A stretch of DNA of 64,000 nt from Candidatus Doudnabacteria bacterium (GTDB lineage Bacteria; Patescibacteriota; Doudnabacteria; UBA920). This document shows, piece by piece, positions 1,682-48,664 of the stretch (positions are counted from its first letter, which is position 1; each line of letters starts with the position of its first letter). Under the pieces are notes generated by a model. That model searched no databases, was not told the DNA's origin, and saw only the letters and a list, made by a program, of their open reading frames with translations. The translations under genes and the position numbers were made by a program. The stretch covers positions 35,021-99,020 of the forward strand of contig JAEUSF010000003.1 in assembly GCA_016788665.1 (NCBI GenBank), read 5' to 3'.

Positions 1682-4426
1682 ATGTCATTTTTTACAAGAA
1701 TTTTTGGAGGGGAAAAAACCGCTCTAGAAAAGTACGGTAGCGAGCTTAATAAAATCAACGGCTTTAAAGAAGACGTTTTTAAACTTACCCAAGAAGAAAT
1801 ACAGTCCGAAATTTCAAATTTTAAATTGCAAATTGCAAAATATTCTGACCGGGATTCCATACTCACTGAGCTAAAAAATATTAGGCCGAGGGTTTTTGCT
1901 TTAGTTAGGGAAGCTGCGGCCAGAAGTATTGGTCAAACGCATTATGATGTGCAAATGCTTGGGGGATTGGCCTTAAGCGATGGTCGGATCGCAGAAATGA
2001 AAACTGGTGAAGGAAAAACTTTGACCGCCACCGCGCCCATGGTTTTGTATGCCCTGGCGGGTAGGGGCGCGCATTTGGTTACGGTAAACGACTATTTAGC
2101 CAGGTGGCAGGCCAGTCTTATGGGGCCCGTTTATAAATATTTAGGTTTGAGTGTTGCTTCAATTCAGCACGAAGCTTCTTTTTTATATGACCCAAGTTAC
2201 CAGCCTGGTGAGGATGAGCTGAAAAAAATGGAAGGCGAAGTTCAGGGTTTGGTTATGGACGTAAAGCATATGAGGAAGGTTGACCGTAAGGAGGCTTATA
2301 TGGCCGATATAACTTACGGCACTAACAACGAATTTGGGTTTGACTATCTGCGCGACAACATGGCTCAGCATACTATGCAGCTTGCACAGAGAGATTTGTT
2401 TTTTGCCATTGTTGACGAAGTTGACTCTATTTTAATCGACGAAGCTAGGACGCCGCTTATAATATCTGCGCCGGATACCGAGCCCACAAGTAAATATTAC
2501 GATTTTGCTAAATTGGTAGAAAAGCTCGATGATAAGACGGATTACATAATAGATGAAAAGAAAAAAGCTACAAGTTTAACCGATGCTGGTATAAATAAAA
2601 TTGAAAAGCTTTTGAATGTGCCGAATATCTATGACACTTCAAAGGGGGTTACTACAATTCATCATATAGAGCAGTCGCTTAGAGCAAAAACCTTGTTTAA
2701 AAAGGATCGTGACTATGTTGTTAGGGAAGGTGAGATAGTTATTGTCGACGAGTTTACCGGTCGTATGATGTTTGGGAGGAGATATAGCGAAGGATTGCAT
2801 CAGGCTATCGAAGCTAAGGAAAACGTAGAAATTCAGGCAGAAAGTAAAACTCTGGCAACAATTACGTTTCAAAACTTGTTTAGGCTATATTGGTTTTTAG
2901 CTGGTATGACTGGAACGGCAAAAACGGAAGAGGAAGAATTTTTCAAAATTTACAGGCTTCAGGTGGAGCAGGTGCCTACCAACAAACCCAATGCGCGTTT
3001 GGATGGGCATGATATGGTTTATAAAACCGAAGACGCCAAGTTTAAGGCCATTGCCAAAGAAGTTAAAGAGCGCAATAAAAAGGGTCAGCCTGTTTTAATT
3101 GGTACAGTCAGCATAGCCAAGAACGAAATATTAGCAGAGCATTTAAAGTCGGAAGGTTTGAAATTTGAAATTTTGAATGCTAAAAATCATGAAAGGGAGG
3201 CTAATATTATTTCTCAGGCGGGACGCTTGGGTCAAATAACTTTGGCTACCAACATTGCTGGTCGTGGCGTGGACATTTTACTTGGTGGAAACCCCCCGGA
3301 CTTGGAAGAGGCGGAAGAAGTAAAAAAGGCAGGCGGTCTGCATGTGCTTGGTACGGAAAGACATGAGTCAAGGCGCATAGATAATCAGCTCCGAGGACGC
3401 AGCGGTAGGCAGGGGGATCCGGGCAGTAGTCAATTTTTTGTCTCTATGGAAGATGACCTAATGCGTTTGTTCGGCGGTGAACGTATGAAGTCTTTAATGA
3501 CAAGCTTAGGTTTGCCAGATGATCAGCCTATTGAAGCGAGATTGGTTTCCCGGTCAATTGAATCAGCTCAGAAGAAAATTGAAGGACTGAATTTTGACAC
3601 TCGAAAACATGTTTTAGAATTTGACGATGTCTTAAACCATCAGCGCAACCATATATACAAATTAAGAAGGAAATATTTGCCGGGCAGAGGCGCAGGGGCT
3701 GAAAAGCAAGAAGAGGCGAATGATGAGGGCGGACTAAAATCGGAATATCTGGAACTTGTTGAAAAAGAAATAGAAACTGTAGTAAAGTTTAATTTGAATG
3801 CCGGGGAACACGGGTCTTTGGAAACTCCAGAAGACAGGATTTTAAAAGAGCTGGGCACAATGATGCCAATAGATGCCGAGTTAACGGTAAAAGTTAAAGA
3901 GAGCGGTAAGAATTCGGCAGACAAAGAATTCGCAATTATAGATACTTTAACAGCATTTGCCACAGAGCTTTTGGAAAAAAGGCAAAAAGATATGGGTACG
4001 GAAGTCTTTGACGGTGCAATGCGGTTTATTGCTCTTTCCAGCATAGACCAACTGTGGATGGAACATTTGGATACCATGGACCATTTAAGAGACTCTGTAA
4101 GGCTAAGGGGATATGGACAGCGTGACCCGTTAGTGGAATACAAAAAAGAAGGTCATGAGCTGTTTAAGAATTTGCTGGAGGAAATTAATAAGCAAATGGT
4201 TTACACTGTGTTTAAGATTCAAGCTCAAATAGAGGCTTCTCCAGCGCCGGCTGCACGGTTAGTCACAAATAAGTCGGATTCTGCTGATTCTGGCCAGCTA
4301 ACGAGCGAAAGCGGCAGTGTGGGGAGGAATGACCCTTGCCCGTGTGGAGCTATTAATCCAGAAACAGGTAAGGCCTACAAGTATAAACGATGCGGTATGA
4401 TAAATGCTCCGTATCATAAAAAATAG
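1682..4426 (+). CDS. secA: Preprotein translocase ATPase SecA
   Basis: 914 aa. DEAD-like motor motifs (MKTGEGKTL, DEVDSILIDEART, TNIAGRGVDI). C-terminal zinc-binding tail CPCG...C. Confidence 0.95.
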   Translation: MSFFTRIFGGEKTALEKYGSELNKINGFKEDVFKLTQEEIQSEISNFKLQIAKYSDRDSILTELKNIRPRVFALVREAAARSIGQTHYDVQMLGGLALSDGRIAEMKTGEGKTLTATAPMVLYALAGRGAHLVTVNDYLARWQASLMGPVYKYLGLSVASIQHEASFLYDPSYQPGEDELKKMEGEVQGLVMDVKHMRKVDRKEAYMADITYGTNNEFGFDYLRDNMAQHTMQLAQRDLFFAIVDEVDSILIDEARTPLIISAPDTEPTSKYYDFAKLVEKLDDKTDYIIDEKKKATSLTDAGINKIEKLLNVPNIYDTSKGVTTIHHIEQSLRAKTLFKKDRDYVVREGEIVIVDEFTGRMMFGRRYSEGLHQAIEAKENVEIQAESKTLATITFQNLFRLYWFLAGMTGTAKTEEEEFFKIYRLQVEQVPTNKPNARLDGHDMVYKTEDAKFKAIAKEVKERNKKGQPVLIGTVSIAKNEILAEHLKSEGLKFEILNAKNHEREANIISQAGRLGQITLATNIAGRGVDILLGGNPPDLEEAEEVKKAGGLHVLGTERHESRRIDNQLRGRSGRQGDPGSSQFFVSMEDDLMRLFGGERMKSLMTSLGLPDDQPIEARLVSRSIESAQKKIEGLNFDTRKHVLEFDDVLNHQRNHIYKLRRKYLPGRGAGAEKQEEANDEGGLKSEYLELVEKEIETVVKFNLNAGEHGSLETPEDRILKELGTMMPIDAELTVKVKESGKNSADKEFAIIDTLTAFATELLEKRQKDMGTEVFDGAMRFIALSSIDQLWMEHLDTMDHLRDSVRLRGYGQRDPLVEYKKEGHELFKNLLEEINKQMVYTVFKIQAQIEASPAPAARLVTNKSDSADSGQLTSESGSVGRNDPCPCGAINPETGKAYKYKRCGMINAPYHKK

Positions 4427-4470
4427 AGCAAAATATATATTTACAAATCTAACTACTAACTACTAATACT

Positions 4471-4749
4471 ATGAGCGATTTTTTAAAAAAGCAACCAACG
4501 AAAACCGAGCAGGCTATGTATGAGCTTGCTATGCACATGCAGCATTTGGACAGAAGCCTGGTAACCAATTCGGCATTTATGGCAATTTTGGCAATGCAGT
4601 CGAAAATTGATCCGAAGGTTATTGCCGAATACTTAACTACCAAAAGGGAAGAAGTGCATGAGTACAGTAAAAAAATTAACGCAGCCATAGACGAAATAGA
4701 AGCAAAGTCCAAAGAGCAGCCAAAAGCAGAAGAAAAGCCTAATGGTTAA
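4471..4749 (+). CDS. Hypothetical protein (92 aa)
   Basis: ORF between secA and the Nudix gene, no recognisable motif. Ends at the Nudix start (14 nt apart); the listed Nudix-frame ORF start at 4742 overlaps its last 8 nt. Confidence 0.35.
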   Translation: MSDFLKKQPTKTEQAMYELAMHMQHLDRSLVTNSAFMAILAMQSKIDPKVIAEYLTTKREEVHEYSKKINAAIDEIEAKSKEQPKAEEKPNG

Positions 4750-4795
4750 AAATTTATTATCTTTTTTCGCACGCGTGAAAAAAGATAATTTTTTT

Positions 4796-5254
4796 ATGAC
4801 ACAACAAAGTGACAGGCCTAAAATAGGTATGGGGGTCTATATTTTAAACGAAAAGTTTGAGTTGCTTTTGACTTTGAGAAAAAACACAGTAGCATCGGGA
4901 AAATGGTGTCCGCCCGGCGGGCATTTGGAATACGGTGAAGAGCCGGCTGAAGGAGCGAAGCGGGAGGTTATGGAAGAAGTTGGTTTGAAAGTGGAGACAA
5001 TTGAATTATGGGCGGTAGTCAATAATATTATGAAGGATCCTGACAGGCATTATGTGAACCTGGATTTTTTTGCAGAAAAGTGGAGTGGAGAAGTTAGAAA
5101 TGTGGAGCCGGAAAAGTGTGAGAAAATAGAATGGTTCGGTCTAAACAATTTGCCTGAAAATTTAATGGATCCTTTGGTAAATTTCTTAAAGAGTAATCCC
5201 AAGTGTTTTTGCAAAAGCGGAAAACAATTAAATGAGTGCCATGGGAAAATATAA
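4796..5254 (+). CDS. NUDIX hydrolase
   Basis: Nudix box GGHLEYGEEPAEGAKREVMEEVGL (GX5EX7REUXEEXGU). Start taken at ATG 4796; the upstream ORF start at 4742 is an alternative. Confidence 0.8.
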   Translation: MTQQSDRPKIGMGVYILNEKFELLLTLRKNTVASGKWCPPGGHLEYGEEPAEGAKREVMEEVGLKVETIELWAVVNNIMKDPDRHYVNLDFFAEKWSGEVRNVEPEKCEKIEWFGLNNLPENLMDPLVNFLKSNPKCFCKSGKQLNECHGKI

Positions 5255-5970: not shown

Positions 5971-6534
5971 ATGAAATTGACTCTTAAACAAAAACAGGCA
6001 TCCCTTGAAATGATTAAAGGAGAGATTGAGAATTGTAAAATTTGCAAAAAAGGCAAAATAGGGAGAGCAGTTCCGGGAGAGGGAAGCGCTAATGCTAAAA
6101 TCGTTTTTTTGGGTGAAGCTCCGGGTAAAACGGAAGCCGAAACAGGCAGGCCGTTTATTGGAAGAGCGGGAAAGGTATTGCGGGGACTAATTCAGGACGT
6201 GGGTCTTAAAGAAGACGAAGTTTTTATAACTAGTCCGGTAAAATATTTGCCTAAGTATGTTACGCCGACCGAGGCTGACATAAAGCATGGTTTTTTGCAT
6301 TTAGATAAGCAGCTAGGAATAATACAGCCTAAAGTGGTGGTTTTAATGGGTAGAGTGGCAGCTTTGGCAATTTTAAAACGTCAGGTGGAAGTATCTAAGG
6401 AGCATGGTAAAATAATAGAACTTGATGAGAGAAAATATTTGTTAACCTATCATCCTGCAGCTCCCTTGTATAGCCCAAAAGTGAAACCAGAACTAGTAAA
6501 AGACTTTCGTAAAATTAAAAAATTACTCAAGTAA
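5971..6534 (+). CDS. Uracil-DNA glycosylase, family 4
   Basis: GEGSANAKIVFLGEAPGKTEAETGRPFIGRAGKVL is the family-4 UDG active-site signature. Confidence 0.75.
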   Translation: MKLTLKQKQASLEMIKGEIENCKICKKGKIGRAVPGEGSANAKIVFLGEAPGKTEAETGRPFIGRAGKVLRGLIQDVGLKEDEVFITSPVKYLPKYVTPTEADIKHGFLHLDKQLGIIQPKVVVLMGRVAALAILKRQVEVSKEHGKIIELDERKYLLTYHPAAPLYSPKVKPELVKDFRKIKKLLK

Positions 6535-6535
6535 G

Positions 6536-7054
6536 ATGCATATAAAGTTGGTCAAGCCTTCGGAGAAATATAAAAAGTCATTTCTGCAATCTTTTAAGTC
6601 TCTGTATTTGTTTAATTATCAAGACTTGGATTTGTCATATAAGCAAGTAAATCTAAATTTTAAAGAGTTTTTAAGAACACTGCATAATCAGTCAAATAAG
6701 AAAGCGTTGGCTAAAGGGCGCGTACCTAGTACAACTTATTGGCTTGTTCGGGACTTAAAATATTTAGGCAGTGTTAATATTAGACATTATTTAAACAAAC
6801 ATTTAAAAAGAGTCGGTGGTCATATTGGCTATGAAATTACACTCAAAGAAAGAGGTAAGGGGTACGGCAATGCGATTTTAAAACTGGCATTGAAAAAAGC
6901 TAAACGGCTTGGCATAGACAAAGCTTTACTGACTTGCGATAAAAGTAATATTCCTTCTAAAAAAGTTATTGAATACAATGGCGGCAGGATTATAAAAAGT
7001 TTGTTTAAACAAGGTAAAGCGCCGGAAAAACTACGATACTGGATAAAAGTATAA
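6536..7054 (+). CDS. GNAT family N-acetyltransferase
   Basis: GYEITLKERGKGYGNAILKLALKKAKRLG fits the acetyl-CoA binding motif A. Confidence 0.6.
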   Translation: MHIKLVKPSEKYKKSFLQSFKSLYLFNYQDLDLSYKQVNLNFKEFLRTLHNQSNKKALAKGRVPSTTYWLVRDLKYLGSVNIRHYLNKHLKRVGGHIGYEITLKERGKGYGNAILKLALKKAKRLGIDKALLTCDKSNIPSKKVIEYNGGRIIKSLFKQGKAPEKLRYWIKV

Positions 7055-7056
7055 AT

Positions 7057-7755
7057 ATGGAAAAACGAAATCAAAACATGCGGGAAGTATTGGATTCTTT
7101 GCCAGAAGTGGAAATAGATATTGTGGGGGCTGACCTAAAACTTTTAAAAGATTTTTTACTTATACAGGCAAAGTCTGAAACGAGGCGTTTGGCAACCAGT
7201 GTTTATGAAAAAACAAAACCATGGGTTATGCCGGAAGCGGCGAGTGTAAGTGAAAAAATTGTGCAGGCAATAAAGTTTGCTGCTGCAAATAATTTAAATA
7301 TACGTTTGCGTAAGGATGGGGAAAAACAGCTGTTTTGTGTTAAAACTAAACGAGATGAAAATAAGACGGGGCCAGATAACCGACAAGAATTTGAATTGGA
7401 GGTAACGGCTGAAGAACGAGTGGTGATTGAAAGCTTGTTGAATGCTTGTGGTTATGAGCTCTCGGCGGTTCGGGAAAAGGAACGAACCACATTTGTAATA
7501 AGCCACAGCGGGCAAAGTTTTAAGGTGGATATTGACGAGTATCCTGCGGTGGGCCTCAAGAATGAAGCCTCAGTTAAGGCTTATAAGGTTGAAGTTGAGG
7601 GTCCGGATGAGGTGGGTGTTAAAAATTTTGCAGAATCAATTATACAAAAAAGTGGGGCGGGGGGTGTTATGCAGAAAAGTACGGAAGCACAGTTTTTAAA
7701 AAGCCAGGGTTACCCTAAGAAAAAAATAAGACAGTTAAGATTTAATTATGAATAA
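7057..7755 (+). CDS. CYTH-like (triphosphate tunnel metalloenzyme) domain protein, tentative
   Basis: IRLRKDGEKQ...EFELEV...TTFVISHSG..FKVDIDEY resembles the CYTH beta-strand pattern. The canonical N-terminal EXEXK is not clear. Confidence 0.35.
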   Translation: MEKRNQNMREVLDSLPEVEIDIVGADLKLLKDFLLIQAKSETRRLATSVYEKTKPWVMPEAASVSEKIVQAIKFAAANNLNIRLRKDGEKQLFCVKTKRDENKTGPDNRQEFELEVTAEERVVIESLLNACGYELSAVREKERTTFVISHSGQSFKVDIDEYPAVGLKNEASVKAYKVEVEGPDEVGVKNFAESIIQKSGAGGVMQKSTEAQFLKSQGYPKKKIRQLRFNYE

Positions 7756-21988: not shown

Positions 21989-22018
21989 TTGTAAAAAGTT
22001 AGCAAATGTTGTATAATG
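21989..22018 (+). promoter_or_regulatory. Candidate promoter (TTGTAA-18-TATAAT) for the PEP-CTERM gene, followed by a 9-bp-stem 5' UTR hairpin (22027-22062) and GGAGGG RBS
   Basis: Hexamers and the AAATCCTTC/GAAGGATTT inverted repeat read directly. RBS at 22068-22073, ATG at 22077. Confidence 0.35.
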
Positions 22019-22076
22019 CCCTAAACAAATCCTTCAAACCTCGCTAGGTTAAGAAGGATTTTATGTTGGAGGGAAA

Positions 22077-22583
22077 ATGATTCTGTTTGTCATGCTCTTG
22101 GCAGGTAGTATGCTAGGGGCCACTCTCTCGCTCGGTACGGGGCCGACCATAGAGGTTTCGAACTTCTCGGCCGGGACGTCCGAGTTTAGTGTCCAGGTTT
22201 CGCAGCCTGGGTACAACTTTGCTGGAGTAAAAATCCAGCCGCTTGCACCGGGTCTTGACCTGGTACTGAACTCGGCTACAGTGAACGGCAATGTCGCCAC
22301 CGGCTTTTCGGTGGGTTCTTTGGACGGGGCGAAGTACATAGCCCCGGACTCGGCAACGCTGCTGTTGCCCAACTTCGCTGTTGGGACGGTGGTGTTTAAC
22401 CTCACCGCTACAGGTGCGGTCGAGGGACAGAGCCCAAGCCAGCTCTTTATGGTTTTCTTGCAAAACCAGAACAGCTACGGCTTTACGGCGTATAACACCG
22501 CCGATTCTCCGGAGCCTGCAACCTGGGCGCTCGCAGGAGCTGTGCTCCTGGTGCTTGTGGCACTGGGCAAAAAACCTAGTTAG
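22077..22583 (+). CDS. Secreted protein with signal peptide and C-terminal PEP-CTERM-type sorting signal (SPEPATWALAGAVLLVLVALGKKPS*); GC-rich gene, probably foreign
   Basis: N-terminal hydrophobic signal peptide. C-terminus is PEP + hydrophobic helix + KK, as in exosortase substrates. Gene GC is about 57% against about 39% in the flanks. Confidence 0.55.
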   Translation: MILFVMLLAGSMLGATLSLGTGPTIEVSNFSAGTSEFSVQVSQPGYNFAGVKIQPLAPGLDLVLNSATVNGNVATGFSVGSLDGAKYIAPDSATLLLPNFAVGTVVFNLTATGAVEGQSPSQLFMVFLQNQNSYGFTAYNTADSPEPATWALAGAVLLVLVALGKKPS

Positions 22584-22614
22584 CCTTCCAACTTTTGTTC
22601 GGAGGCTTTTTTAT
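22583..22614 (+). terminator. Rho-independent terminator for the PEP-CTERM gene (GCCTTCC...GGAGGC then TTTTTT)
   Basis: Hairpin followed by a T-run immediately after the stop codon. Confidence 0.5.
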
Positions 22615-22652
22615 TTGCAAAAAAATACGCTGGCAACGGTTGTCGCCAGCGT
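22615..22652 (-). terminator. Rho-independent terminator for the minus-strand gene 22680..23177 (ACGCTGGC / GCCAGCGT 8-bp stem, T-run on the minus strand)
   Basis: Perfect 8-bp stem. The A-run on the plus strand is a T-run on the minus strand. Confidence 0.5.
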
Positions 22653-22679
22653 ACAGAAGTTTCGCGAAGAGGGTCGGTA

Positions 22680-23177
22680 CTACTCTTTGAAGATCGTGGG
22701 ATAGGCCTTTTTGGCCTTTTCCCAAGCGTCGACCAGAACCTTGGGCTCCGGCGACTTGAGAGTGAGATCGGTTTCCCGAATTACGCTCTTGAACCGCTCG
22801 CAGTCTTCGGTCTCGAACGGGAAGGCAGCTCCTTCCTTGCATCCCGACGTGACTTCAATTTGGAGGCTCGTCCGGCTGTCTTCCAGCATCCTTCTTACGA
22901 CTTGGATCACGGTTCTTTGCGAACCGATCATACGGTTGATGCTCTGCAGAACTTCATGGTCTCCGAAGACAAGTCCTTTTTCCAGATCCTGGCCGCTGAC
23001 TTTTAGCTTACTCTGGAAGGTTTGGAGCTTTCCGCTCCATTCTTTGATAACCCGGACTTCGTTCCGGGCCGTCTCCAGCCTCATCTTGCCCATTTGGGCA
23101 AGAGGGTCTTCCTGCCCAAAGGCCGCGGAGGCGGCCAATACCAACACCAACCACAACACGATCATAACGCGTTTCAT
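22680..23177 (-). CDS. GC-rich secreted hypothetical protein (signal peptide MKRVMIVLWLVLVLAASAAFGQ, two Cys)
   Basis: Convergent with the PEP-CTERM gene and of similar elevated GC. Its upstream region carries CTCTTCG..CGAAGAG / TTCGCGAA palindromes. Confidence 0.5.
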   Translation of the reverse strand: MKRVMIVLWLVLVLAASAAFGQEDPLAQMGKMRLETARNEVRVIKEWSGKLQTFQSKLKVSGQDLEKGLVFGDHEVLQSINRMIGSQRTVIQVVRRMLEDSRTSLQIEVTSGCKEGAAFPFETEDCERFKSVIRETDLTLKSPEPKVLVDAWEKAKKAYPTIFKE

Positions 23178-38570: not shown

Positions 38571-38599
38571 TTGACACTAAAGACACTTGTTTGTAAAAT
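38571..38599 (+). promoter_or_regulatory. Putative atp operon promoter TTGACA-17-TAAAAT
   Basis: Hexamers read directly, about 50 nt upstream of the atpI-like ORF. Confidence 0.45.
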
Positions 38600-38646: not shown

Positions 38647-38991
38647 ATGCCTAAAGAAAACGACGAAAGCGATAACTACCCAGTGCCTGGCCGAATGAGC
38701 TTAGACCAATTACACAAAGAGCAGGCGGAGCTTAAGGAAGCAAAGGCTGTTAGTCAAAAAAACCCTGGTCCCAGGCTTTTAAACGCCATGTCTATGTTTA
38801 GCGTCGCTATAGATTTTGCGCTCATATTGTCTTTGCCGCTTGTTGCTTTCAGTTTGCTTGGACGTTGGCTCGATAATCGGTATAATCAAAAATTTTTTGT
38901 TATTATTGGTTTATTGTTTGCAATATTTGTCAGTAGCGTAGCAATTGCCAAACAAATAAATAAGCTCTCAAAATTAATTAAGAAAAAGTAA
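38647..38991 (+). CDS. ATP synthase protein I-like (AtpI/AtpZ) small 2-TM protein
   Basis: First gene of the atp operon, two TM helices. Confidence 0.4.
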   Translation: MPKENDESDNYPVPGRMSLDQLHKEQAELKEAKAVSQKNPGPRLLNAMSMFSVAIDFALILSLPLVAFSLLGRWLDNRYNQKFFVIIGLLFAIFVSSVAIAKQINKLSKLIKKK

Positions 38992-39870
38992 ATGCTTTTA
39001 GCAATTCCACCTCTTCAGGCCGAAACCTTGTTTAATATCGGACCTTTGCCAATTACAAATTCATACGTAAACACGACCCTGGCAACAATTGTTTTCATTG
39101 TCGTGGCCTTTTTTGTGCAACGAGGAATAAAGAAGTATTACACTAAAAATGTTGCCCCAAAAGGCTTTTTGAATTTTTTGGAAGCTTTGGTTGAATATAT
39201 GTTCGGATATCTGGACCAAGTAACCGCAGATAGGAAAAAGTCTTTGAAGTTCCTGCCTTTTATTGGAGGATTCTTCTTTTTTATATTGTTTGCAAATTGG
39301 CTTGGTCTAATGCCAGGCACAGGGTCTATATATATGTGGGGTATGCATCATGGCGAAGTTCATATGCTTCCAGTTTTTAGGCCAAGTAATACCGACTTAA
39401 ACATGACTCTGGCAATGGCAGTCTTGGCTGTGGCTACTTCTCATTTATTTGGCATTGCTGCAATAGGGTTTTTTAGGTACTTAAATAAATTTATTAAACT
39501 AGGGGACTTGTATAAAGCCATAATATCTTTTAACCCCGTTAAAATTTTAACTGCCATTGTTGAATTTTTTGTCGGAATAATTGAAATTTTTTCCGAAGTA
39601 GCAAAAATGGTTTCGCTGTCTCTTAGGCTTTATGGAAATGTTTTTGCGGGTGAAGTTTTGCTGACTGTTTTGGCAGGCTTGGTTGCGGTTTTTGTACCTT
39701 TGCCCTTTATTGCTCTTGAAATTTTGGTCGGTTTAATCCAGGCAACAGTTTTTTCTATGCTGACCCTTGTCTACTTTAATATGGCGACCATGGAGCATGG
39801 CGGGCATGATAGCGACCATGAGCATGTAGAGACCTCAAAAGAAGAGCCGGTGCGTACCCCGACTATATAA
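38992..39870 (+). CDS. atpB: F0F1 ATP synthase subunit a
   Basis: Conserved LSLRLYGNVFAGEVLL with the essential Arg. Confidence 0.9.
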   Translation: MLLAIPPLQAETLFNIGPLPITNSYVNTTLATIVFIVVAFFVQRGIKKYYTKNVAPKGFLNFLEALVEYMFGYLDQVTADRKKSLKFLPFIGGFFFFILFANWLGLMPGTGSIYMWGMHHGEVHMLPVFRPSNTDLNMTLAMAVLAVATSHLFGIAAIGFFRYLNKFIKLGDLYKAIISFNPVKILTAIVEFFVGIIEIFSEVAKMVSLSLRLYGNVFAGEVLLTVLAGLVAVFVPLPFIALEILVGLIQATVFSMLTLVYFNMATMEHGGHDSDHEHVETSKEEPVRTPTI

Positions 39871-39979: not shown

Positions 39980-40216
<237 letters not shown>

Positions 40217-40306
40217 GTTTTAAATTGGTTTGGCTTTATAAAAAGCCGAACCGTATTTGATACTTAACGCTACAGAATAAACTGTAGGATTCTAAAAGTA
40301 AACTTT

Positions 40307-40864
40307 ATGCTAGATTTTATACAAGTTGCTCATGCTGCAACCGAAGCTGCCGCTGTTGAAGCGGAGACCGGAGTTTTAGGAACTTTGGGAATAAACTGGA
40401 AACTTTTTTTGGCCCAATTGTTAAATTTTGGCGTCGTTTTATTTGTTTTAAACAGGTACGTTTTTACACCGGTTGGAAAAAAACTTGAAGAAAGAAGGCT
40501 TAAAATTGAAAAGGCTTTGCAAGATGCTGAAGACATAGAAAAAGAAAAGCAAGAATTTGAAAAGTGGAAGAGCGAGGCTGTGGCTGCTGCTAACAAAAAA
40601 GCTTCAGAAATTGTAACTCTGGCTCAAAATGAAGCGAGTAAAGAAAAGTCGGAAGCGCTTTTAAAAACAAAGCAGGAACAGGAGCAAGTAGTTCGCCAAG
40701 CAAAAAGCAAAATTGAGGAAGAAAAGAAGAAGTCTGTTCAAGAGGCCAAAGGTGAAATTGCAGGTATGGTGACTACGGCAACTGAAAAAATTCTTAAAGA
40801 AAAAATTACTGATAAGAAAGATAAAGAATTAATTGAAAAAACCGTCAAGGCAATAACGGAATAA
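40307..40864 (+). CDS. atpF: F0F1 ATP synthase subunit b
   Basis: N-terminal TM plus a long charged coiled coil. Operon position. Confidence 0.75.
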   Translation: MLDFIQVAHAATEAAAVEAETGVLGTLGINWKLFLAQLLNFGVVLFVLNRYVFTPVGKKLEERRLKIEKALQDAEDIEKEKQEFEKWKSEAVAAANKKASEIVTLAQNEASKEKSEALLKTKQEQEQVVRQAKSKIEEEKKKSVQEAKGEIAGMVTTATEKILKEKITDKKDKELIEKTVKAITE

Positions 40865-40865
40865 A

Positions 40866-41258
40866 ATGAAGTACACTTCAAAACAATACGCACAAAGTTT
40901 GCATGAAGCCTTGTCGGAAAGTAGTCCTAAAGACCAAGACAAGGTTTTAGACAATTTTGTTAAGATTCTCGTACAGAATGGTGATATACCTAAGTATTCG
41001 GAAATTGAAAAAGAACTTTCAGAGCTTATACTTCAAACGCAGGGCAAGAAAGTTGGCTATGTTAGTACGGCCCGGGAAATGAATTTAAGCACTGGGGTCG
41101 TTGAGGAACTGAACGAAAGTGTTAAGTCTGACCTGGAAATTCGCCAAAATGTTGAAAGCGGGCTCGTCGGCGGATTGGTTCTAAAAGTTGGCGACAAGCT
41201 TATAGACGCAAGTATAAAGGAGCAGTTAAATAAATTAAGCAAAAGTTTACAAGAATAA
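40866..41258 (+). CDS. atpH: F0F1 ATP synthase subunit delta (OSCP), unusually short (130 aa)
   Basis: Position between atpF and atpA. C-terminal [22 protein letters not shown] matches the delta C-terminus. Confidence 0.6.
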
Positions 41259-41260
41259 AT

Positions 41261-42760
41261 ATGGCACAAGCAAATTTAATAGAGCAATTAAAAAGTAAAA
41301 TTAGCGCCTTCGAGCCTTCTTCAAAAGTTGAAAAGGTTGGATATGTGTTAGAGGTTGCTGACGGCATAGCTAGAATTTCAGGTTTGACTGATGCTGCCAG
41401 TATGGAAATGCTAAGTTTTGAAAATGGCGCAAGCGGCGTTGCTTTAAACCTTGAAGAAAACCAGGTTGGTTGTATAGTTTTGGGTGACTACACGGGAATA
41501 AAAGTTGGAGGCGTAGTTAGACCGACTGGAAAAATATTATCTGTGCCTGTGGGTGAGGCTTTAATTGGCCGCACAGTCGGAGCTTTGGGTGAGCCTAAAG
41601 ATGGAAAAGGGGAGATTGTGGCTGCAAAGTTTTATCCGGTTGAGAAAATAGCTCCTGGTGTCATAACAAGACAAGGTGTAAAGGAACCTGTTCAGACCGG
41701 GGTAAAGGCTATAGACGCTCTTATCCCAATTGGTCGTGGGCAACGTGAGCTTATTATTGGTGACCGTCAAACTGGTAAAACTGCTGTTGCTATAGATGCC
41801 ATTATAAACCAAAAAGGTCAAAACATGGTTTGTATTTATGTAGCGGTTGGTCAGAAAGAAAGTAAGGTTGCAAAAATTACCGAGACTTTAAAAGAAAATG
41901 GTGCAATGGATTATACAATAGTTGTCTCTGCTTCGGCTTCTGAGCCGGCGGCTATGTCGTTTTTGGCACCTTACGCGGCAACAGCAATGGGTGAGTATTT
42001 TATGGACCAGGGTAAAGACGTTTTAGTTGTTTACGACGACCTTTCCAAGCAGGCTGTAGCTTATCGTGAAATTTCTTTGCTCTTAAGAAGACCGCCTGGA
42101 CGCGAAGCTTATCCGGGTGATGTGTTTTATTTACACTCTAGGTTATTGGAAAGAGCCGCAAAGTTAAACAAAGATTTTGGTGGTGGTTCTTTGACAGCAC
42201 TGCCAATTATAGAAACTCAGGCAGGCGACGTGTCTGCTTACATTCCAACAAATGTAATTTCTATTACAGATGGGCAAATATTCTTGGAGTCAGATTTATT
42301 TTATAAAGGTATTAGACCGGCTTTGAATGTGGGTATTTCCGTTTCCCGTGTAGGAAGTGCAGCTCAAACCAAAGCAATGAAGAAAGTGGCGGGCAAACTT
42401 AAATTAAGTCTCGCACAATTTAGAGAACTGGAAGCTTTTGCTCAGTTCGGTTCGGATCTGGACGAAAATACGAAGAACCAATTGGAACTTGGTCGCAGAC
42501 TCACGGAAATTTTAAAGCAACCTCAGTATTCTCCGCTTTCTTTAGAACAGCAAGTTACTGTTATTTACGCGGTATCTAACGGCTATTTTAACCCGATTGC
42601 GGCGGAAAAAATGCCGGAAACAGAAAAGGCTTTTCACCAGTACATGAAAGTTCATGCTAAAGATGTTTTGCAAGCTATTTCTACAACTAAAGAATTGAAC
42701 GAAGAAACGGAAAATAAATTAAAGGATGCAATTAAGAGTTTTGTGGAAAGCGTAAAATAA
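41261..42760 (+). CDS. atpA: F0F1 ATP synthase subunit alpha
   Basis: [10 protein letters not shown]-loop, 499 aa. Confidence 0.95.
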
Positions 42761-42765
42761 TTTCT

Positions 42766-43221
42766 ATGGAGTTTTTGCGGCCTGAGTTTGAAAAATATTC
42801 TGAAAAAACCGAAACGGGGTTGGAAAACAGCGTTGAGAGGCTAATGAAAATGGCGGAGTTAAAGTATGCAGAAAATAATTCTATGGTGCTGGTTGTTATA
42901 AACGGAGAGCCTAATGCTGGAAAAACTGAGTTAAAAAATAGGTTTCAGGCGTATTTTCCTAAAGTTGCCGGCCCCAAGCCTCTTTGCACAGCCGTGACCG
43001 GATTTCAAAAGCTTGAAACTTTGCAGGAATTCCCCGAAAAGTTTTTGCTCGTTGAAGAAGTGATCCCTTCGGCACTGGCGGACAAGCTGGCAGCCGATTC
43101 CGGGCTAACGGTTGGTTTATATATTTATATTTATAACCCAAATCTAGCAGAGCATATTTCTGAATCTAGTTCGAAAAGAGCGGACTTAATAATTATAAAT
43201 CCAGATTCTGTAAAAAAATAA
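42766..43221 (+). CDS. Small P-loop-containing hypothetical protein inserted between atpA and atpG (Walker A GEPNAGKTE)
   Basis: 151-aa ORF, 5 nt after atpA and 1 nt before atpG. GxxxxGKT motif at residues 47-54. Confidence 0.5.
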   Translation: MEFLRPEFEKYSEKTETGLENSVERLMKMAELKYAENNSMVLVVINGEPNAGKTELKNRFQAYFPKVAGPKPLCTAVTGFQKLETLQEFPEKFLLVEEVIPSALADKLAADSGLTVGLYIYIYNPNLAEHISESSSKRADLIIINPDSVKK

Positions 43222-43222
43222 T

Positions 43223-44107
43223 ATGGCAGGTATTAAAGAACTTAAAATTCGAATAAAGAGTATACGTGGGACAAGGAAAATTACCCGCGCAATGCAAATG
43301 GTTTCGGCGGCAAAAATGAAACGAGCTCAAAATGCAACGGTTTCTTCCCGTAGTTATTCCGAAATGGCTTGGGAAATTATTAAGAACTTAAGCCGCAAAG
43401 GTGCATTTTCACACCCCTTAATTAAGGCCTATCCGGACGCACAGAAGGTAGGTGTAATACTTATTTCTTCTAACAAAGGGTTGGTTGGAAGCTTGAATGC
43501 TAATTTAATATATTCTCTAAAACAGGTGGTAGCCGAAGCGGACACTTCCAAAATAATTGACCTAATTACTTATGGTAAAAAAGGTCAGATACTAGCTGGA
43601 AGGCTTGGAAAAAATATTAATGCAGATTTTCAAAAGATAGAAAAGGGTCCTAAAATTGAGGATATTTATCCAATTTCGCAGTACATAAGCGACGCATACG
43701 CAAAGGGCGAATACAGTAAATTTTATTTAATATATAATTTTTTCAATTCTACTCTAAGTCAAAAACCTGTTCTTAAGCAGTTGCTTCCTTTTTCTGATGA
43801 CTTGCTTAAACAGCTTGAAGACCCGGACAACCTTCCAACTTCAAACGACATTGATTATGTGTTTGAGCCAGATGTTAACCAAGTTTTGGAGCACTTAGTG
43901 CCTAGAATTTTAGAAAGCCAAATTTATCAGGCGGTTTTAGAAGCCGAAGCTAGCGAGCACAGCGCGAGAATGATAATGATGAAGAACGCGACCGAAGCGG
44001 CGGGTGACTTGATATCTGACTTAACCCTAACTTTTAACCAATTAAGGCAAAATAAGATTACTACCGAGCTCGCCGAAATTACTTCCGGTAAAATCGCTTT
44101 AGAATAA
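43223..44107 (+). CDS. atpG: F0F1 ATP synthase subunit gamma
   Basis: N-terminal ...IKSIRGTRKITRAMQMVSAAKM and C-terminal ...ITTELAEITSG are conserved gamma termini. Confidence 0.9.
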   Translation: MAGIKELKIRIKSIRGTRKITRAMQMVSAAKMKRAQNATVSSRSYSEMAWEIIKNLSRKGAFSHPLIKAYPDAQKVGVILISSNKGLVGSLNANLIYSLKQVVAEADTSKIIDLITYGKKGQILAGRLGKNINADFQKIEKGPKIEDIYPISQYISDAYAKGEYSKFYLIYNFFNSTLSQKPVLKQLLPFSDDLLKQLEDPDNLPTSNDIDYVFEPDVNQVLEHLVPRILESQIYQAVLEAEASEHSARMIMMKNATEAAGDLISDLTLTFNQLRQNKITTELAEITSGKIALE

Positions 44108-44108
44108 A

Positions 44109-44519
44109 ATGAACGAAGAAGAATTTAACCATTTTAATCCTTACGAGGGTAAAAAAGAATCTGGCTTAACACCAGATGAAAAAGATTTGGTCGCAAGTGA
44201 ATTATTTGCTGAACTTCTTGCCTCTTTGAAAGGCACTCAAGCAAGGGATCAGTTGGCAGAATTTATGATACCTGAGCTTGACGAAGATACTCCTGAGCAA
44301 GATGTAACGCCAAATCTTGAACGGCTTAAAGAGTTTTTGGTAAATAATGGTGTTGTTACCGGGCGAGAATTAGAAGAAATAGTTGAGCGAATAATAATTA
44401 AACTGCCCGACTTAAAACTTTCCCAAGAAGCAAATATTGCTACTTGGCAGCCTAGGGTTCAGAATTTTCTTGCAGATGAATTGCGTAAGTTTAACACTAA
44501 CAATTCCGACACGGAATAA
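44109..44519 (+). CDS. Acidic hypothetical protein (136 aa) inserted between atpG and atpD
   Basis: ORF 1 nt after atpG and 9 nt before atpD. Highly acidic, no recognisable motif. Confidence 0.45.
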   Translation: MNEEEFNHFNPYEGKKESGLTPDEKDLVASELFAELLASLKGTQARDQLAEFMIPELDEDTPEQDVTPNLERLKEFLVNNGVVTGRELEEIVERIIIKLPDLKLSQEANIATWQPRVQNFLADELRKFNTNNSDTE

Positions 44520-44525
44520 ATATAA

Positions 44526-45911
<1,386 letters not shown>

Positions 45912-46001: not shown

Positions 46002-46454
46002 ATGAACTTAATTACTTTTAAATTGGTGACGCCAGAAAAAACCGTTCTAAATATGGAATTGGTAAGTTTGACCTGTCCTACAACAACAGGTCAGATAACA
46101 ATTTTGCCAAATCATGAACCGCTTATTTCAACTTTAGTGCCCGGAGAAATGAAGGCTAAAACTAGCGATGAAGAATATTTGCTTAATGTGGCGGGAGGGT
46201 TTGTGCAAGTACAGGCCGGAAGTCAGGTAGTCGTTTTAGCAGATGCGGCGGAGCACTCATATGAAATAGATTTAAAGCGAGCCGAGGAAGCAAAAAAGCG
46301 CGCGGAAGCAGCAATGAAAGAAGTCAGGGTGAATCAGGAAGAGTACGCAAAAGTTGCTGCTGCTTTGGAAAGAAGCCTTGCCAGATTAAATGTAGCAAGA
46401 AAAAGATCTCGCAGAAAAAATCCAATTACCTCGGAAGGTATATTGGAGGAATAA
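46002..46454 (+). CDS. atpC: F0F1 ATP synthase subunit epsilon
   Basis: N-terminal beta-sandwich pattern (LVTPEKTVL...ITILPNHEPLIS) and a C-terminal helical hairpin. Confidence 0.85.
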   Translation: MNLITFKLVTPEKTVLNMELVSLTCPTTTGQITILPNHEPLISTLVPGEMKAKTSDEEYLLNVAGGFVQVQAGSQVVVLADAAEHSYEIDLKRAEEAKKRAEAAMKEVRVNQEEYAKVAAALERSLARLNVARKRSRRKNPITSEGILEE

Positions 46455-47539: not shown

Positions 47540-47615
47540 CGCGGGATAGAGCAATTGGCAGCTCGTCAGGCTCATAACCTGAAGGTTCCCGGTTCGAGTC
47601 CGGGTCCCGCAACCA
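47540..47615 (+). tRNA. Initiator tRNA-fMet (anticodon CAT)
   Basis: Starts CGCGGGA and ends TCCCGCAACCA, with the C1:A72 mismatch typical of bacterial initiators. CUCAUAA anticodon loop. Close to the E. coli tRNA-fMet sequence. Confidence 0.8.
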
Positions 47616-47995
47616 TAAACCATTCGCTAACGCTCAGGTATATGGCGCGGTCATAAGTCGCGTTTTGAGTGTTGCGACCATTTGTTTATATTGGCGAATG
47701 GTTTATGACCTTACTCGGCCCCGTTTTGGCGGGAGAGTGTTTAGGGCATGAAGGCGACAAATATAATAGCAAAATCGTGACAGATTTTTCCCGCTGTCCG
47801 CGGGATTTATTTTGTTCGTAATTACGCGTGGCGGTCACGCTTAACGTGACTGTTGCCGCGCTTAGCGCGGCGGAGTAGCTGAAGTGTTACCCGCCCGAAC
47901 GTACCCCGCCAGAATGAAACTTTCGGGCTAGCGTTCGGTACGGGCGAGGAGCGTGGGACTCATAAGTCACCTAAGTGATCCGGGGTTTCTATAAT

Positions 47996-48029
47996 ATGTT
48001 TTATGCATATGTTTTATGCATATGTTTTA
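47996..48029. repeat. Tandem repeat, 13-bp unit ATGTTTTATGCAT x2.6
   Basis: Read directly (atgttttatgcat atgttttatgcat atgtttta). Confidence 0.8.
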
Positions 48030-48248
48030 AAGAACACTAAAGGAATTCTATATAAAGGATCAACGGATAATTTAGAATAAAGGAGCATAACTCAAAATTA
48101 TTTAAGTCATTCACGAGAGGTAGGGGAGCATGGATACTTGTGTATTTTGAAGAGTTTAACACTAGGCGAGAGGCGGAAATACGAGAAAAGTATTTTAAGT
48201 CTAAAGCTGGGTGGTTCTATTTTAAAAATACGTTACATCTATTATAAT

Positions 48249-48325
48249 GGCGGAGTAGCTCAGTTAGTTAGAGCGTGGGACTCATAAGCCCAAGGTCGGT
48301 GGTGCAATTCCACCCTCCGCTACCA
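48249..48325 (+). tRNA. tRNA-like gene with CAT anticodon (Met or Ile2/lysidine type), atypical T-loop (G at position 55); preceded by TATAAT
   Basis: 77-nt cloverleaf: acceptor GGCGGAG/CTCCGCT (G1:U72 wobble), D arm GCTC-AGTTAGTTA-GAGC, anticodon loop CUCAUAA, T arm GGTGG-TGCAATT-CCACC, CCA encoded. Confidence 0.5.
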
Positions 48326-48334
48326 AAACACTTT

Positions 48335-48388
48335 GGGACTCATAAGTCACTTAAGTGATCGGTGGTGCAATTCCACCCTCCGCTACCA
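48335..48388 (+). repeat. Partial tandem copy of the tRNA(CAT)-like gene: the anticodon-loop segment and the T arm/acceptor 3' end, interrupted by the palindrome GTCACTTAAGTGAT
   Basis: GGGACTCATAAG then TCACTTAAGTGATC then GGTGGTGCAATTCCACCCTCCGCTACCA. Identical to the 48249 gene except for the insert. Confidence 0.55.
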
Positions 48389-48498
48389 GTCTTCGCTAAA
48401 GCCACGGCTGGCTATGGCCAGCAATATCTAAAGAAGGCTGTCCGACGAAGTCACCTAAGTGACGAAGTTGGACATACATTTAGTCTATAAATTTACAT

Positions 48499-48575
48499 GG
48501 GACCGTAGCTCAATTGGTTAGAGCACTCGCCTGTCACGCGAGAGGTTACGGGTTCGAGCCCCGCCGGTCCCGCCA
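48499..48575 (+). tRNA. tRNA-Asp (anticodon GTC)
   Basis: Acceptor GGGACCG/CGGTCCC, anticodon stem CTCGC/GCGAG with loop CUGUCAC, T arm ACGGG-TTCGAGC-CCCGC, CCA encoded. Confidence 0.85.
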
Positions 48576-48612: not shown

Positions 48613-48664
48613 ATGGTTAGAGTGGGCGAAAAGTTTATCCGCCGTAGTTTTAGCGAAGGAGGAA

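Follow-up and report, generated by a model that had tools for sequence, protein, structure and literature searches.

The stretch of DNA analysed here (the window) is 64 kb of a metagenome-assembled genome (MAG) of Candidatus Doudnabacteria, and its atp operon harbors two extra open reading frames (ORFs), X1 and X2, one on each side of atpG. Comparison of related operons gives good support to the idea that, in one sub-clade, the atpA/atpG and atpG/atpD junctions act as permissive slots with a fast turnover. Judged from its motifs, X1 is a member of an undescribed family of small P-loop proteins of 149-165 amino acids (aa); judged from homology searches, X2 is a genome-specific ORFan. The reading that we favor, with a confidence slightly better than even, joins these elements: in permissive slots X1 would be both an old resident and an F1-associated nucleotide-binding factor—the functional part is what we infer—and X2 an ORFan.

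Two additional ORFs within the F1 block

Few gene orders of bacteria are conserved as rigidly as the alpha-gamma-beta block of the F-type atp operon. In the window, X1 (151 aa, ATG start, TAA stop; NCBI tag JNN11_02240, 'hypothetical protein') occupies positions 42766..43221 between atpA and atpG, and X2 (136 aa, ATG start, TAA stop; NCBI tag JNN11_02250, 'hypothetical protein') positions 44109..44519 between atpG and atpD, both on the + strand and both deposited on one 126,995-bp contig. Read on the raw sequence, X1 is separated by 5 nt ('tttct') from atpA and by 1 nt from atpG, X2 by 1 nt from atpG and by 9 nt from atpD. The first-pass annotation, which had described a 151-aa protein with a GEPNAGKT motif and an acidic 136-aa protein wedged in the operon with these spacers, is thus exact in its coordinates, and also as regards acidity: X2 counts 30 D+E for 14 K+R, giving a net charge of -16.

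These ORFs are more than chance openings. With a stop-codon probability of 0.0706 per codon, the chance of an open frame is 1.6e-5 for the 151 codons of X1 and 4.8e-5 for the 136 codons of X2, and a shuffled 64-kb strand has on average 0.16 runs of 136 or more codons without a stop. The codon-usage score in frame, 0.284 bits/codon for X1 and 0.387 for X2, compares with that of the true atp genes (0.26-0.47), every other reading frame scoring negative; the GC content of X1 (0.404) and X2 (0.380) is similar to that of the adjoining genes. That one or both ORFs would be non-coding spacers, open by chance and turned into genes by annotation, is thus very hard to believe. X2 could lend itself to this explanation, having no homologue by which its conservation might be assessed; against it stand the low open-frame probabilities, the filling of the gaps to within 1-9 nt, a codon usage as good as that of the atp genes and, for X1, the existence of homologues under purifying selection.

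A Shine-Dalgarno-like core is found at most 20 nt upstream in only one of the 34 window ORFs of at least 200 aa, and translation initiation in this Doudnabacteria genome appears to be Shine-Dalgarno-independent. As the genome barely uses this signal, its absence before X1 and X2 is uninformative. The start codons of the window lie in A-rich contexts, e.g. AAAATAATG.

The X1 family and its place in the operon

In X1 a hydrophobic strand leads into a Walker A motif (V-L-V-V-I-N-G-E-P-N-A-G-K-T, residues 41-54, with G-E-P-N-A-G-K-T at 47-54). A word-indexed search of 5.8 billion proteins retrieved only two homologues, 57-58% identical and both located between atpA and atpG, while a profile search of 1.84 billion cluster representatives gave 15 hits at E<=1e-3, 13 of them 149-165 aa long. 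Two long multi-stretch proteins, P0010 (1172 aa) and P0017 (510 aa), were set aside from the profile hits; hereafter P-numbers designate members of the X1 family and L-numbers the atp loci of relatives. A five-sequence alignment of the family found no match in metagenome contigs, and scans of viral contigs gave none either.

In the 15-sequence family alignment (A2), G47, P49, G52, K53 and N145 are invariant, and D117, N124, P125 and D140 nearly so. Towards the C-terminus the family displays two motifs, D-x-Y-V-Y-I-Y-N-P and A-D-L-I-I-x-N-P-D-S, which read Y-I-Y-N-P-N and A-D-L-I-I-I-N-P-D-S in X1. A Walker-B-like stretch, F-L-L-V-E-E, corresponds to residues 93-98 of X1; its Glu97 is found in 11 of the 15 members and gives way to His or Thr in the rest. 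D117 and D140 are better conserved than E97 but lie at strand starts. The predicted architecture would be an N-terminal helix followed by about four beta-alpha units and carrying the invariant Walker A. The AlphaFold (AF2) model of X1 does present the expected beta-alpha alternation, with a pLDDT (predicted local distance difference test) of 47.6; submitted to Foldseek against the PDB, it matches PPK2 best (E 0.037) and nothing significantly.

X1 remains below the cut-off of all Pfam and NCBIfam families: its best score is 13.8 bits for the 21.9-22.4 required in Pfam, and 18.7 for the 247 required in NCBIfam. The sub-threshold hits fall around the Walker A and belong to PPK2, MMR_HSR1, Zeta_toxin, KTI12 and TniB. 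Against Pfam, the weak matches of the 15 family members scatter over 45 different P-loop families (best E 3.5e-5); against PDB sequences, the family profile matches 9jix best (E 3e-6), followed by Der/EngA and NSF in their G1 regions. Because these matches are weak and scattered, we consider X1 as an unclassified minimal P-loop protein. Neither X1 nor X2 matches the profiles of the canonical F1Fo subunits (alpha/beta, gamma, OSCP, epsilon, a, b, c) or of ATPase_gene1.

Nine distinct members of the family (P0001, P0002, P0003, P0005, P0006, P0007, P0011, P0012 and P0013), on 11 contigs, lie directly 3' of atpA, and atpG follows them wherever the contig extends far enough. Their identity to the X1 of the window is 27-58% where measured, so that co-location and co-orientation with the atp genes are conserved across divergent genomes. 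The atpA-X1 junctions that were read either overlap as TAATG or leave a spacer no longer than 5 nt; in four out of seven (L003, L083, L090 and L091) the stop codon of atpA and the start codon of X1 overlap or are contiguous (TAATG or TAAATG). The TAATG overlap of most relatives, where the window has the 5-nt spacer, suggests that translation of X1 is coupled to that of alpha.

The identity to the window falls in parallel for X1 and AtpG (57/88, 39/58, 32/54 and 27/54 percent); this same order is consistent with vertical descent. In the sole pair of loci unsaturated at synonymous sites, L002 vs L003 (dS about 0.26-0.32), the ratio of nonsynonymous to synonymous substitution rates (dN/dS) is 0.31 for X1 and 0.028 for atpG, which indicates that X1 is a genuine gene kept by purifying selection, though about ten times more loosely than gamma. 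X1 would be the oldest recognisable occupant of the atpA/atpG slot, apparently inherited vertically with the operon.

The screens for mobile or defence elements remained blank for both proteins. The best PHROGs hit has an E-value of 0.006, PADLOC reports nothing, tblastn against plasmids and phages and the comparison with viral contigs give no match, and around the two genes we found no flanking direct or inverted repeats or target-site duplications beyond chance. X1 and X2 thus match no mobile gene family, an origin that the first-pass annotation had named as contrary to an accessory role.

Gene turnover around atpG and the surrounding operon

Related atp loci were fetched by AtpG similarity, and 22 Doudnabacteria-like ones were annotated. 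Neighbour-joining trees, one on AtpA+AtpG+AtpD and a second on AtpG alone adding L009 and L094, delimit a filled-slot clade of 13 loci (the window, L003-L007, L009-L011, L016, L083, L090 and L094), in which X1 is present in dispersed branches. The atpA/atpG slot of these 13 loci holds X1 in five cases, a PF05635 protein in two, unrelated orphan ORFs in five and nothing in one, while the atpG/atpD slot contains an ORF in nine of them; these occupancy frequencies are biased, L083, L090 and L094 having been found via X1 itself. The orphan slot ORFs have no Pfam match, and the 12 loci of neighbouring clades have no ORF at atpA/atpG. The slots flanking atpG would thus carry small, same-strand, tightly abutted and fast-evolving genes, which vary from genome to genome.

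Some occupants are of a recognisable kind. In L011 (4587-4982) and L016 (4573-4980) a 23S-rRNA-IVS / four-helix-bundle protein of the PF05635 family (E 2e-38) lies between atpA and atpG. L016 also carries, on the minus strand of the atpG/atpD gap (6344-7522), a DDE transposase of insertion sequence (IS) type (PF01609, E 2.8e-33), which indicates that the operon tolerates interruption between gamma and beta.

For X2 there is no homologue among the 5.8 billion proteins or the other slot ORFs, nor in metagenome contigs, viral contigs, plasmids or phages; Pfam gives no hit at E<=1 and NCBIfam none either, Foldseek finds no fold match in the PDB (E>=1), and hhalign gives a probability of 0.5% for a relation with the slot ORF family of L009/L083/L090. 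Its single-sequence AlphaFold model (pLDDT 62.8) combines an unstructured acidic N-terminus with five helices. The closest relative, L003 (AtpA 91%, AtpG 88% and AtpD 94% identical), has X1 and is collinear, but contains a 119-nt AT-rich spacer between atpG and atpD in place of X2. The view of X2 as a lineage-specific accessory subunit, put forward in the first-pass annotation, does not fit with this absence nor with the lack of any homologue; a passenger or a very young gene is the more likely reading. X2 is probably expressed with the operon, its acidic N-terminus probably disordered ahead of the five predicted helices. It may be a very recent or rapidly diverged occupant of its slot, possibly a modulator of F1, or else a passenger without function in the ATP synthase.

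Several other loci keep traces of events in the operon. L018 (5908-6072) and L020 (2084-2413) are 91% identical in nucleotides apart from an indel of about 165 nt, which shortens the atpG/atpD slot ORF from 109 aa in L020 to 54 aa in L018 by deletion of its two predicted transmembrane segments; the L018 ORF is, from this alignment, a slot gene caught decaying. In L009 (4298-4342) and L010 (4465-4522) the first ~15 codons of atpG (MPGTKELKTRIKSIQ) are duplicated between two slot ORFs, the copy being nearly identical in nucleotides to the real atpG 5' end at 5001. The ORF downstream of the copy has 148 aa in L009 and 135 aa in L010, without similarity between the two, although the L010 remnant and the L009 atpG 5' end share 74% identity. 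This duplicate resembles a footprint left when a second ORF entered atpG near codon 16 and the 5' end of the gene was regenerated. In L090, an X1-bearing locus, a further hydrophobic ORF of 107 aa without Pfam match lies between atpH and atpA (2974-3297), so that a third junction of the operon can also be occupied.

A GC-rich sequence of 24 nt, CCGCCGTAGTTTTAGCGAAGGAGG, found after the tRNA-Asp gene of the window (48639-48662), recurs almost unchanged in the atpA/atpG gap of L009 (4348-4371), where it adjoins the atpG 5' remnant, and an 18-nt piece of this L009 stretch also matches the atpA/atpG gap of L012; no such recurrence is expected by chance in the window.

The operon itself is complete and lies on the + strand, with the eight canonical genes and an atpI-like gene, each separate from X1 and X2. 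Upstream, the best sigma-70-like promoter match (TTGACA-17-TAAAAT, 11/12, 38571..38599, + strand) is a consensus match only, and the total of such matches in the region is not above the shuffled expectation. The atpI-like gene (114 aa, 38647..38991; Pfam ATPase_gene1, E 8.3e-7) comes first, then atpB for subunit a (292 aa, 38992..39870), identified as an ORF whose syntenic genes in L001 and L083 are PF00119, and atpE for subunit c (78 aa, 39980..40216), an ORF whose syntenic genes are PF00137. A terminator-like hairpin stands after atpE (40226-40253). It is followed by atpF for subunit b (185 aa, 40307..40864; Pfam ATP-synt_B, E 2.5e-20), atpH for delta (130 aa, 40866..41258; Pfam OSCP, E 1.4e-18, residues 13-128 covering profile positions 54-172), and atpA for alpha (499 aa, 41261..42760, TAA stop), an ORF 91% identical to L003. 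Beyond X1 come atpG for gamma (294 aa, 43223..44107; Pfam ATP-synt, E 8.7e-85; TIGR01146, 272.7 bits for a cut-off of 194) and, beyond X2, atpD for beta (460 aa, 44529..45911), an ORF 94% identical to L003, then atpC for epsilon (150 aa, 46002..46454; Pfam ATP-synt_DE_N, E 2.6e-21, and ATP-synt_DE, E 2.3e-10), which includes a C-terminal helical domain.

The 130 aa of AtpH had been taken as a truncation. The delta subunit is in fact 127-135 aa long in 23 of the 23 related loci with an atpH match, whatever the slot content, and is thus short as a clade-wide trait; it keeps a canonical N-terminal helix, 'QYAQALYEA', the Pfam OSCP profile aligning only from its position 54. Being found in all 23 loci irrespective of the slots, the short delta is a matter separate from the inserts. 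A compensation of the short delta by X1 was considered and ruled out, since loci with empty slots share this trait.

Downstream of the operon the window contains a tRNA-Met / tRNA-Met / tRNA-Asp cluster (47540-48575), whose equivalent in L093 is at 3820-4750. In the window the two tRNA-Met genes are 633 nt apart, and the gap is occupied by a GC-rich stretch and an apparent frameshifted remnant of a GIY-YIG nuclease; the hand-spliced translation of this remnant matches Pfam with E 8e-4 and 20 bits, under the cut-off. This gap, which is the site of the X1-family member P0009 in L093, was inspected for a relic X1 paralogue and none was found. In another part of the window, the 1-kb bin at 22001-23000 has a GC content of 0.532, vs about 0.39 elsewhere; it is probably an RNA gene or a foreign segment.

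Possible roles of the two ORFs and comparison with known systems

The conserved position of X1, its apparent coupling to alpha and the purifying selection make an F1-directed role the most likely one for this protein. That X1 be a nucleotide-binding factor directed to F1, acting in its assembly or its regulation, seems to us plausible, at an even chance or somewhat under. The order of genes in operons tends to follow the order of assembly of complexes, and for this reason we take the gene position to reflect the assembly partner. X1 is probably not a core subunit, because sister lineages replace or omit it and because it is about ten times less constrained than gamma. The proposal of an accessory subunit, made for both ORFs when they were first noticed, thus finds partial support: for X1 the comparison points in its direction, with nine members in the same slot on 11 contigs and a dN/dS of 0.31, though the same slot contains unrelated genes or nothing in sister lineages; the inspection of related operons, likewise, retrieves X1 in relatives and finds X2 missing from the closest one.

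Several observations weigh against the reading that we favor. The Walker-B-like E97 is kept in just 11 of the 15 family members, so that ATPase activity may not be universal among them, and the AlphaFold model, at the pLDDT given above, is poor, which makes the fold tentative. Four family members stand outside the atpA/atpG slot: P0009, in L093, is flanked by two tRNA-Met genes some 2 kb past the end of the same atp operon, P0015 and P0019 come from short contigs that carry no atp genes, and P0021, a marginal member, is beside Archease and RtcB genes in a locus without atp genes. L004, L005 and L006 carry non-P-loop ORFs at atpA/atpG and L007 has none, from which X1 appears dispensable for a working operon. 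Finally, the presence of a 23S-rRNA-IVS-type protein and of an IS element in the same slots may mean that these slots just tolerate hitch-hikers.

This last point leads to the explanation of X1 and X2 as neutral or selfish passengers, lodged at junctions where an essential, strongly transcribed operon tolerates them, and persisting by free expression and linkage without any action on the ATP synthase. The slot contents do change between close relatives, PF05635 protein and IS transposase included; X2 is missing from the nearest relative, a slot ORF is decaying in L018 compared with L020, the duplicated atpG 5' fragment of L009 and L010 can be read as an insertion footprint, and the roughly tenfold relaxed constraint of X1 relative to atpG, like its relatives outside the operon, goes in the same direction. 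On the other hand X1 keeps its slot, its stop/start overlap and its motifs down to 27% identity, with a dN/dS of 0.31, and the two ORFs have no flanking repeats, no anomaly of composition and no phage, plasmid or defence match, so that we consider this explanation rather unlikely. It is even less probable, and improbable in itself, that X1 and X2 are stoichiometric extra subunits of a modified F1Fo in this lineage, e.g. compensating for the short delta; this would be the first-pass proposal in its strongest form. The spacers of 1-9 nt, the location of both genes on the operon strand, the shortness of delta and the conserved position of X1 would agree with such subunits; but the short delta is found in 23 of 23 loci, empty slots included, without being tracked by the inserts, X2 is confined to one genome, and X1 is absent in many members of the clade that share 57-89% identity with the window in alpha, beta and gamma. 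It is this lack of the inserts in relatives with highly similar core subunits that makes the model unlikely.

The P-loop of X1 also evokes enzymes. A small metabolic kinase of the nucleoside monophosphate, nucleoside or polyphosphate type, co-expressed with the ATP synthase and not bound to it, would account for the sub-threshold likeness to PPK2 (NCBIfam E 8e-4; Foldseek E 0.04) and to KTI12, Zeta toxin, deoxynucleoside kinase and adenylate kinase. All these hits are nevertheless limited to the Walker A region and far under the curated cut-offs (18.7 vs 247 bits), the ~110 residues that follow the N-terminal helix leave no room for the lid and substrate domains of known kinases, and the hits to GTPase, AAA and STAND proteins are equally weak, the best PDB match being a de novo designed minimal P-loop protein; we find a kinase just as improbable as the extra subunits. 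As for a toxin-antitoxin-like pair, with X1 a zeta-like P-loop toxin and X2 an acidic helical antitoxin, it is scarcely credible. Seven of the 15 family members do have a weak Zeta_toxin hit (best E 2.7e-4), and X2 is small, acidic and helical; but atpG separates the two genes, X1 is about half the size of a zeta toxin and scores 12.9 bits for a cut-off of 22.3, and PADLOC is blank for both. This pair was rejected, as X1 and X2 co-occur in no other genome.

A bolder proposal would make X1 an unknown nucleotide-binding partner of F1 in ultra-small Patescibacteria: made by translational coupling to alpha, X1 would load, assemble or gate F1, and the slot genes, X2 among them, would be rapidly evolving modulators. 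We hold this for unlikely, more so than the passengers and less so than the extra subunits or the kinase. If the slot genes were such modulators, they would form a diversifying regulatory layer on a highly conserved machine, possibly tied to a host-dependent lifestyle. Should X1 act on F1, it would have no forerunner, in the literature searched, as a P-loop accessory factor for a bacterial ATP synthase, and would offer a handle on the tuning of energy conversion in organisms of minimal metabolism. If X1 and X2 are passengers, the slots would be a clean natural example of ORFan turnover, possibly of gene birth, in an essential and highly expressed operon. In any case a whole sub-clade of Doudnabacteria-like bacteria of the Candidate Phyla Radiation (CPR) has both atpG junctions open to small genes, the X1 family would be a new minimal P-loop family holding its position through deep divergence, and the duplicated atpG 5' ends, as insertion footprints, could reveal the mechanism.

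Lineage-specific extra genes in atp operons are already known, whereas the P-loop family found here is undescribed, and no description of such inserts in atp operons was found in the searchable literature. Bacterial atp operons include non-core genes such as atpI/uncI, atpZ and, in N-ATPases, atpQ/atpR, which are small, restricted to certain lineages and transcribed together with the ATP synthase; X1 and X2 would be of a similar sort. The products of these known genes are membrane proteins, encoded at the 5' end of the operon; those of X1 and X2 are soluble, are encoded inside the F1 block on either flank of atpG and match none of these families. The zeta subunit of alphaproteobacteria is a helical bundle with a disordered inhibitory N-terminus, and X2, small, helical and probably disordered in its N-terminal segment, resembles it in outline. 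X2 nevertheless has no sequence or fold match to the inhibitors of F-type enzymes (epsilon C-terminal domain, zeta, mitochondrial IF1, cyanobacterial AtpTheta); unlike them it is strongly acidic and is not kept in the closest relative, and the epsilon encoded here already has a C-terminal helical domain.

X1 shares with P-loop nucleoside triphosphatases the motif G-x-P-x-x-G-K-[ST] placed after a hydrophobic strand; its predicted beta/alpha alternation and a hydrophobic strand ending in Glu (LLVEE) may be further points of likeness. It differs from them by its ~150 aa only, its own C-terminal motifs and a Walker B acid that is not universal. With the TRAFAC GTPases (MMR_HSR1 / Der(EngA)) it has in common the G1 flavour 'G-x-P-N-x-G-K-[ST]-x-L'; eight of the 15 family members weakly match MMR_HSR1, and Der appears in the PDB search with E 1.3e-5. 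The likeness concerns only the G1 region, at 13.8 bits for a Pfam cut-off of 21.9, and no column of alignment A2 conserves a DxxG (G3) or [NT]KxD (G4) motif. The closest solved sequence is that of PL2x4_2 (PDB 9jix), the de novo designed minimal P-loop ATPase, matched with E 3e-6 over profile positions 40-136. As to the slot itself, X1 and X2 do not match PF05635, and the PF05635 proteins that take the place of X1 in L011 and L016 indicate that the atpA/atpG junction is open to genes of a kind known to reside within highly expressed loci.

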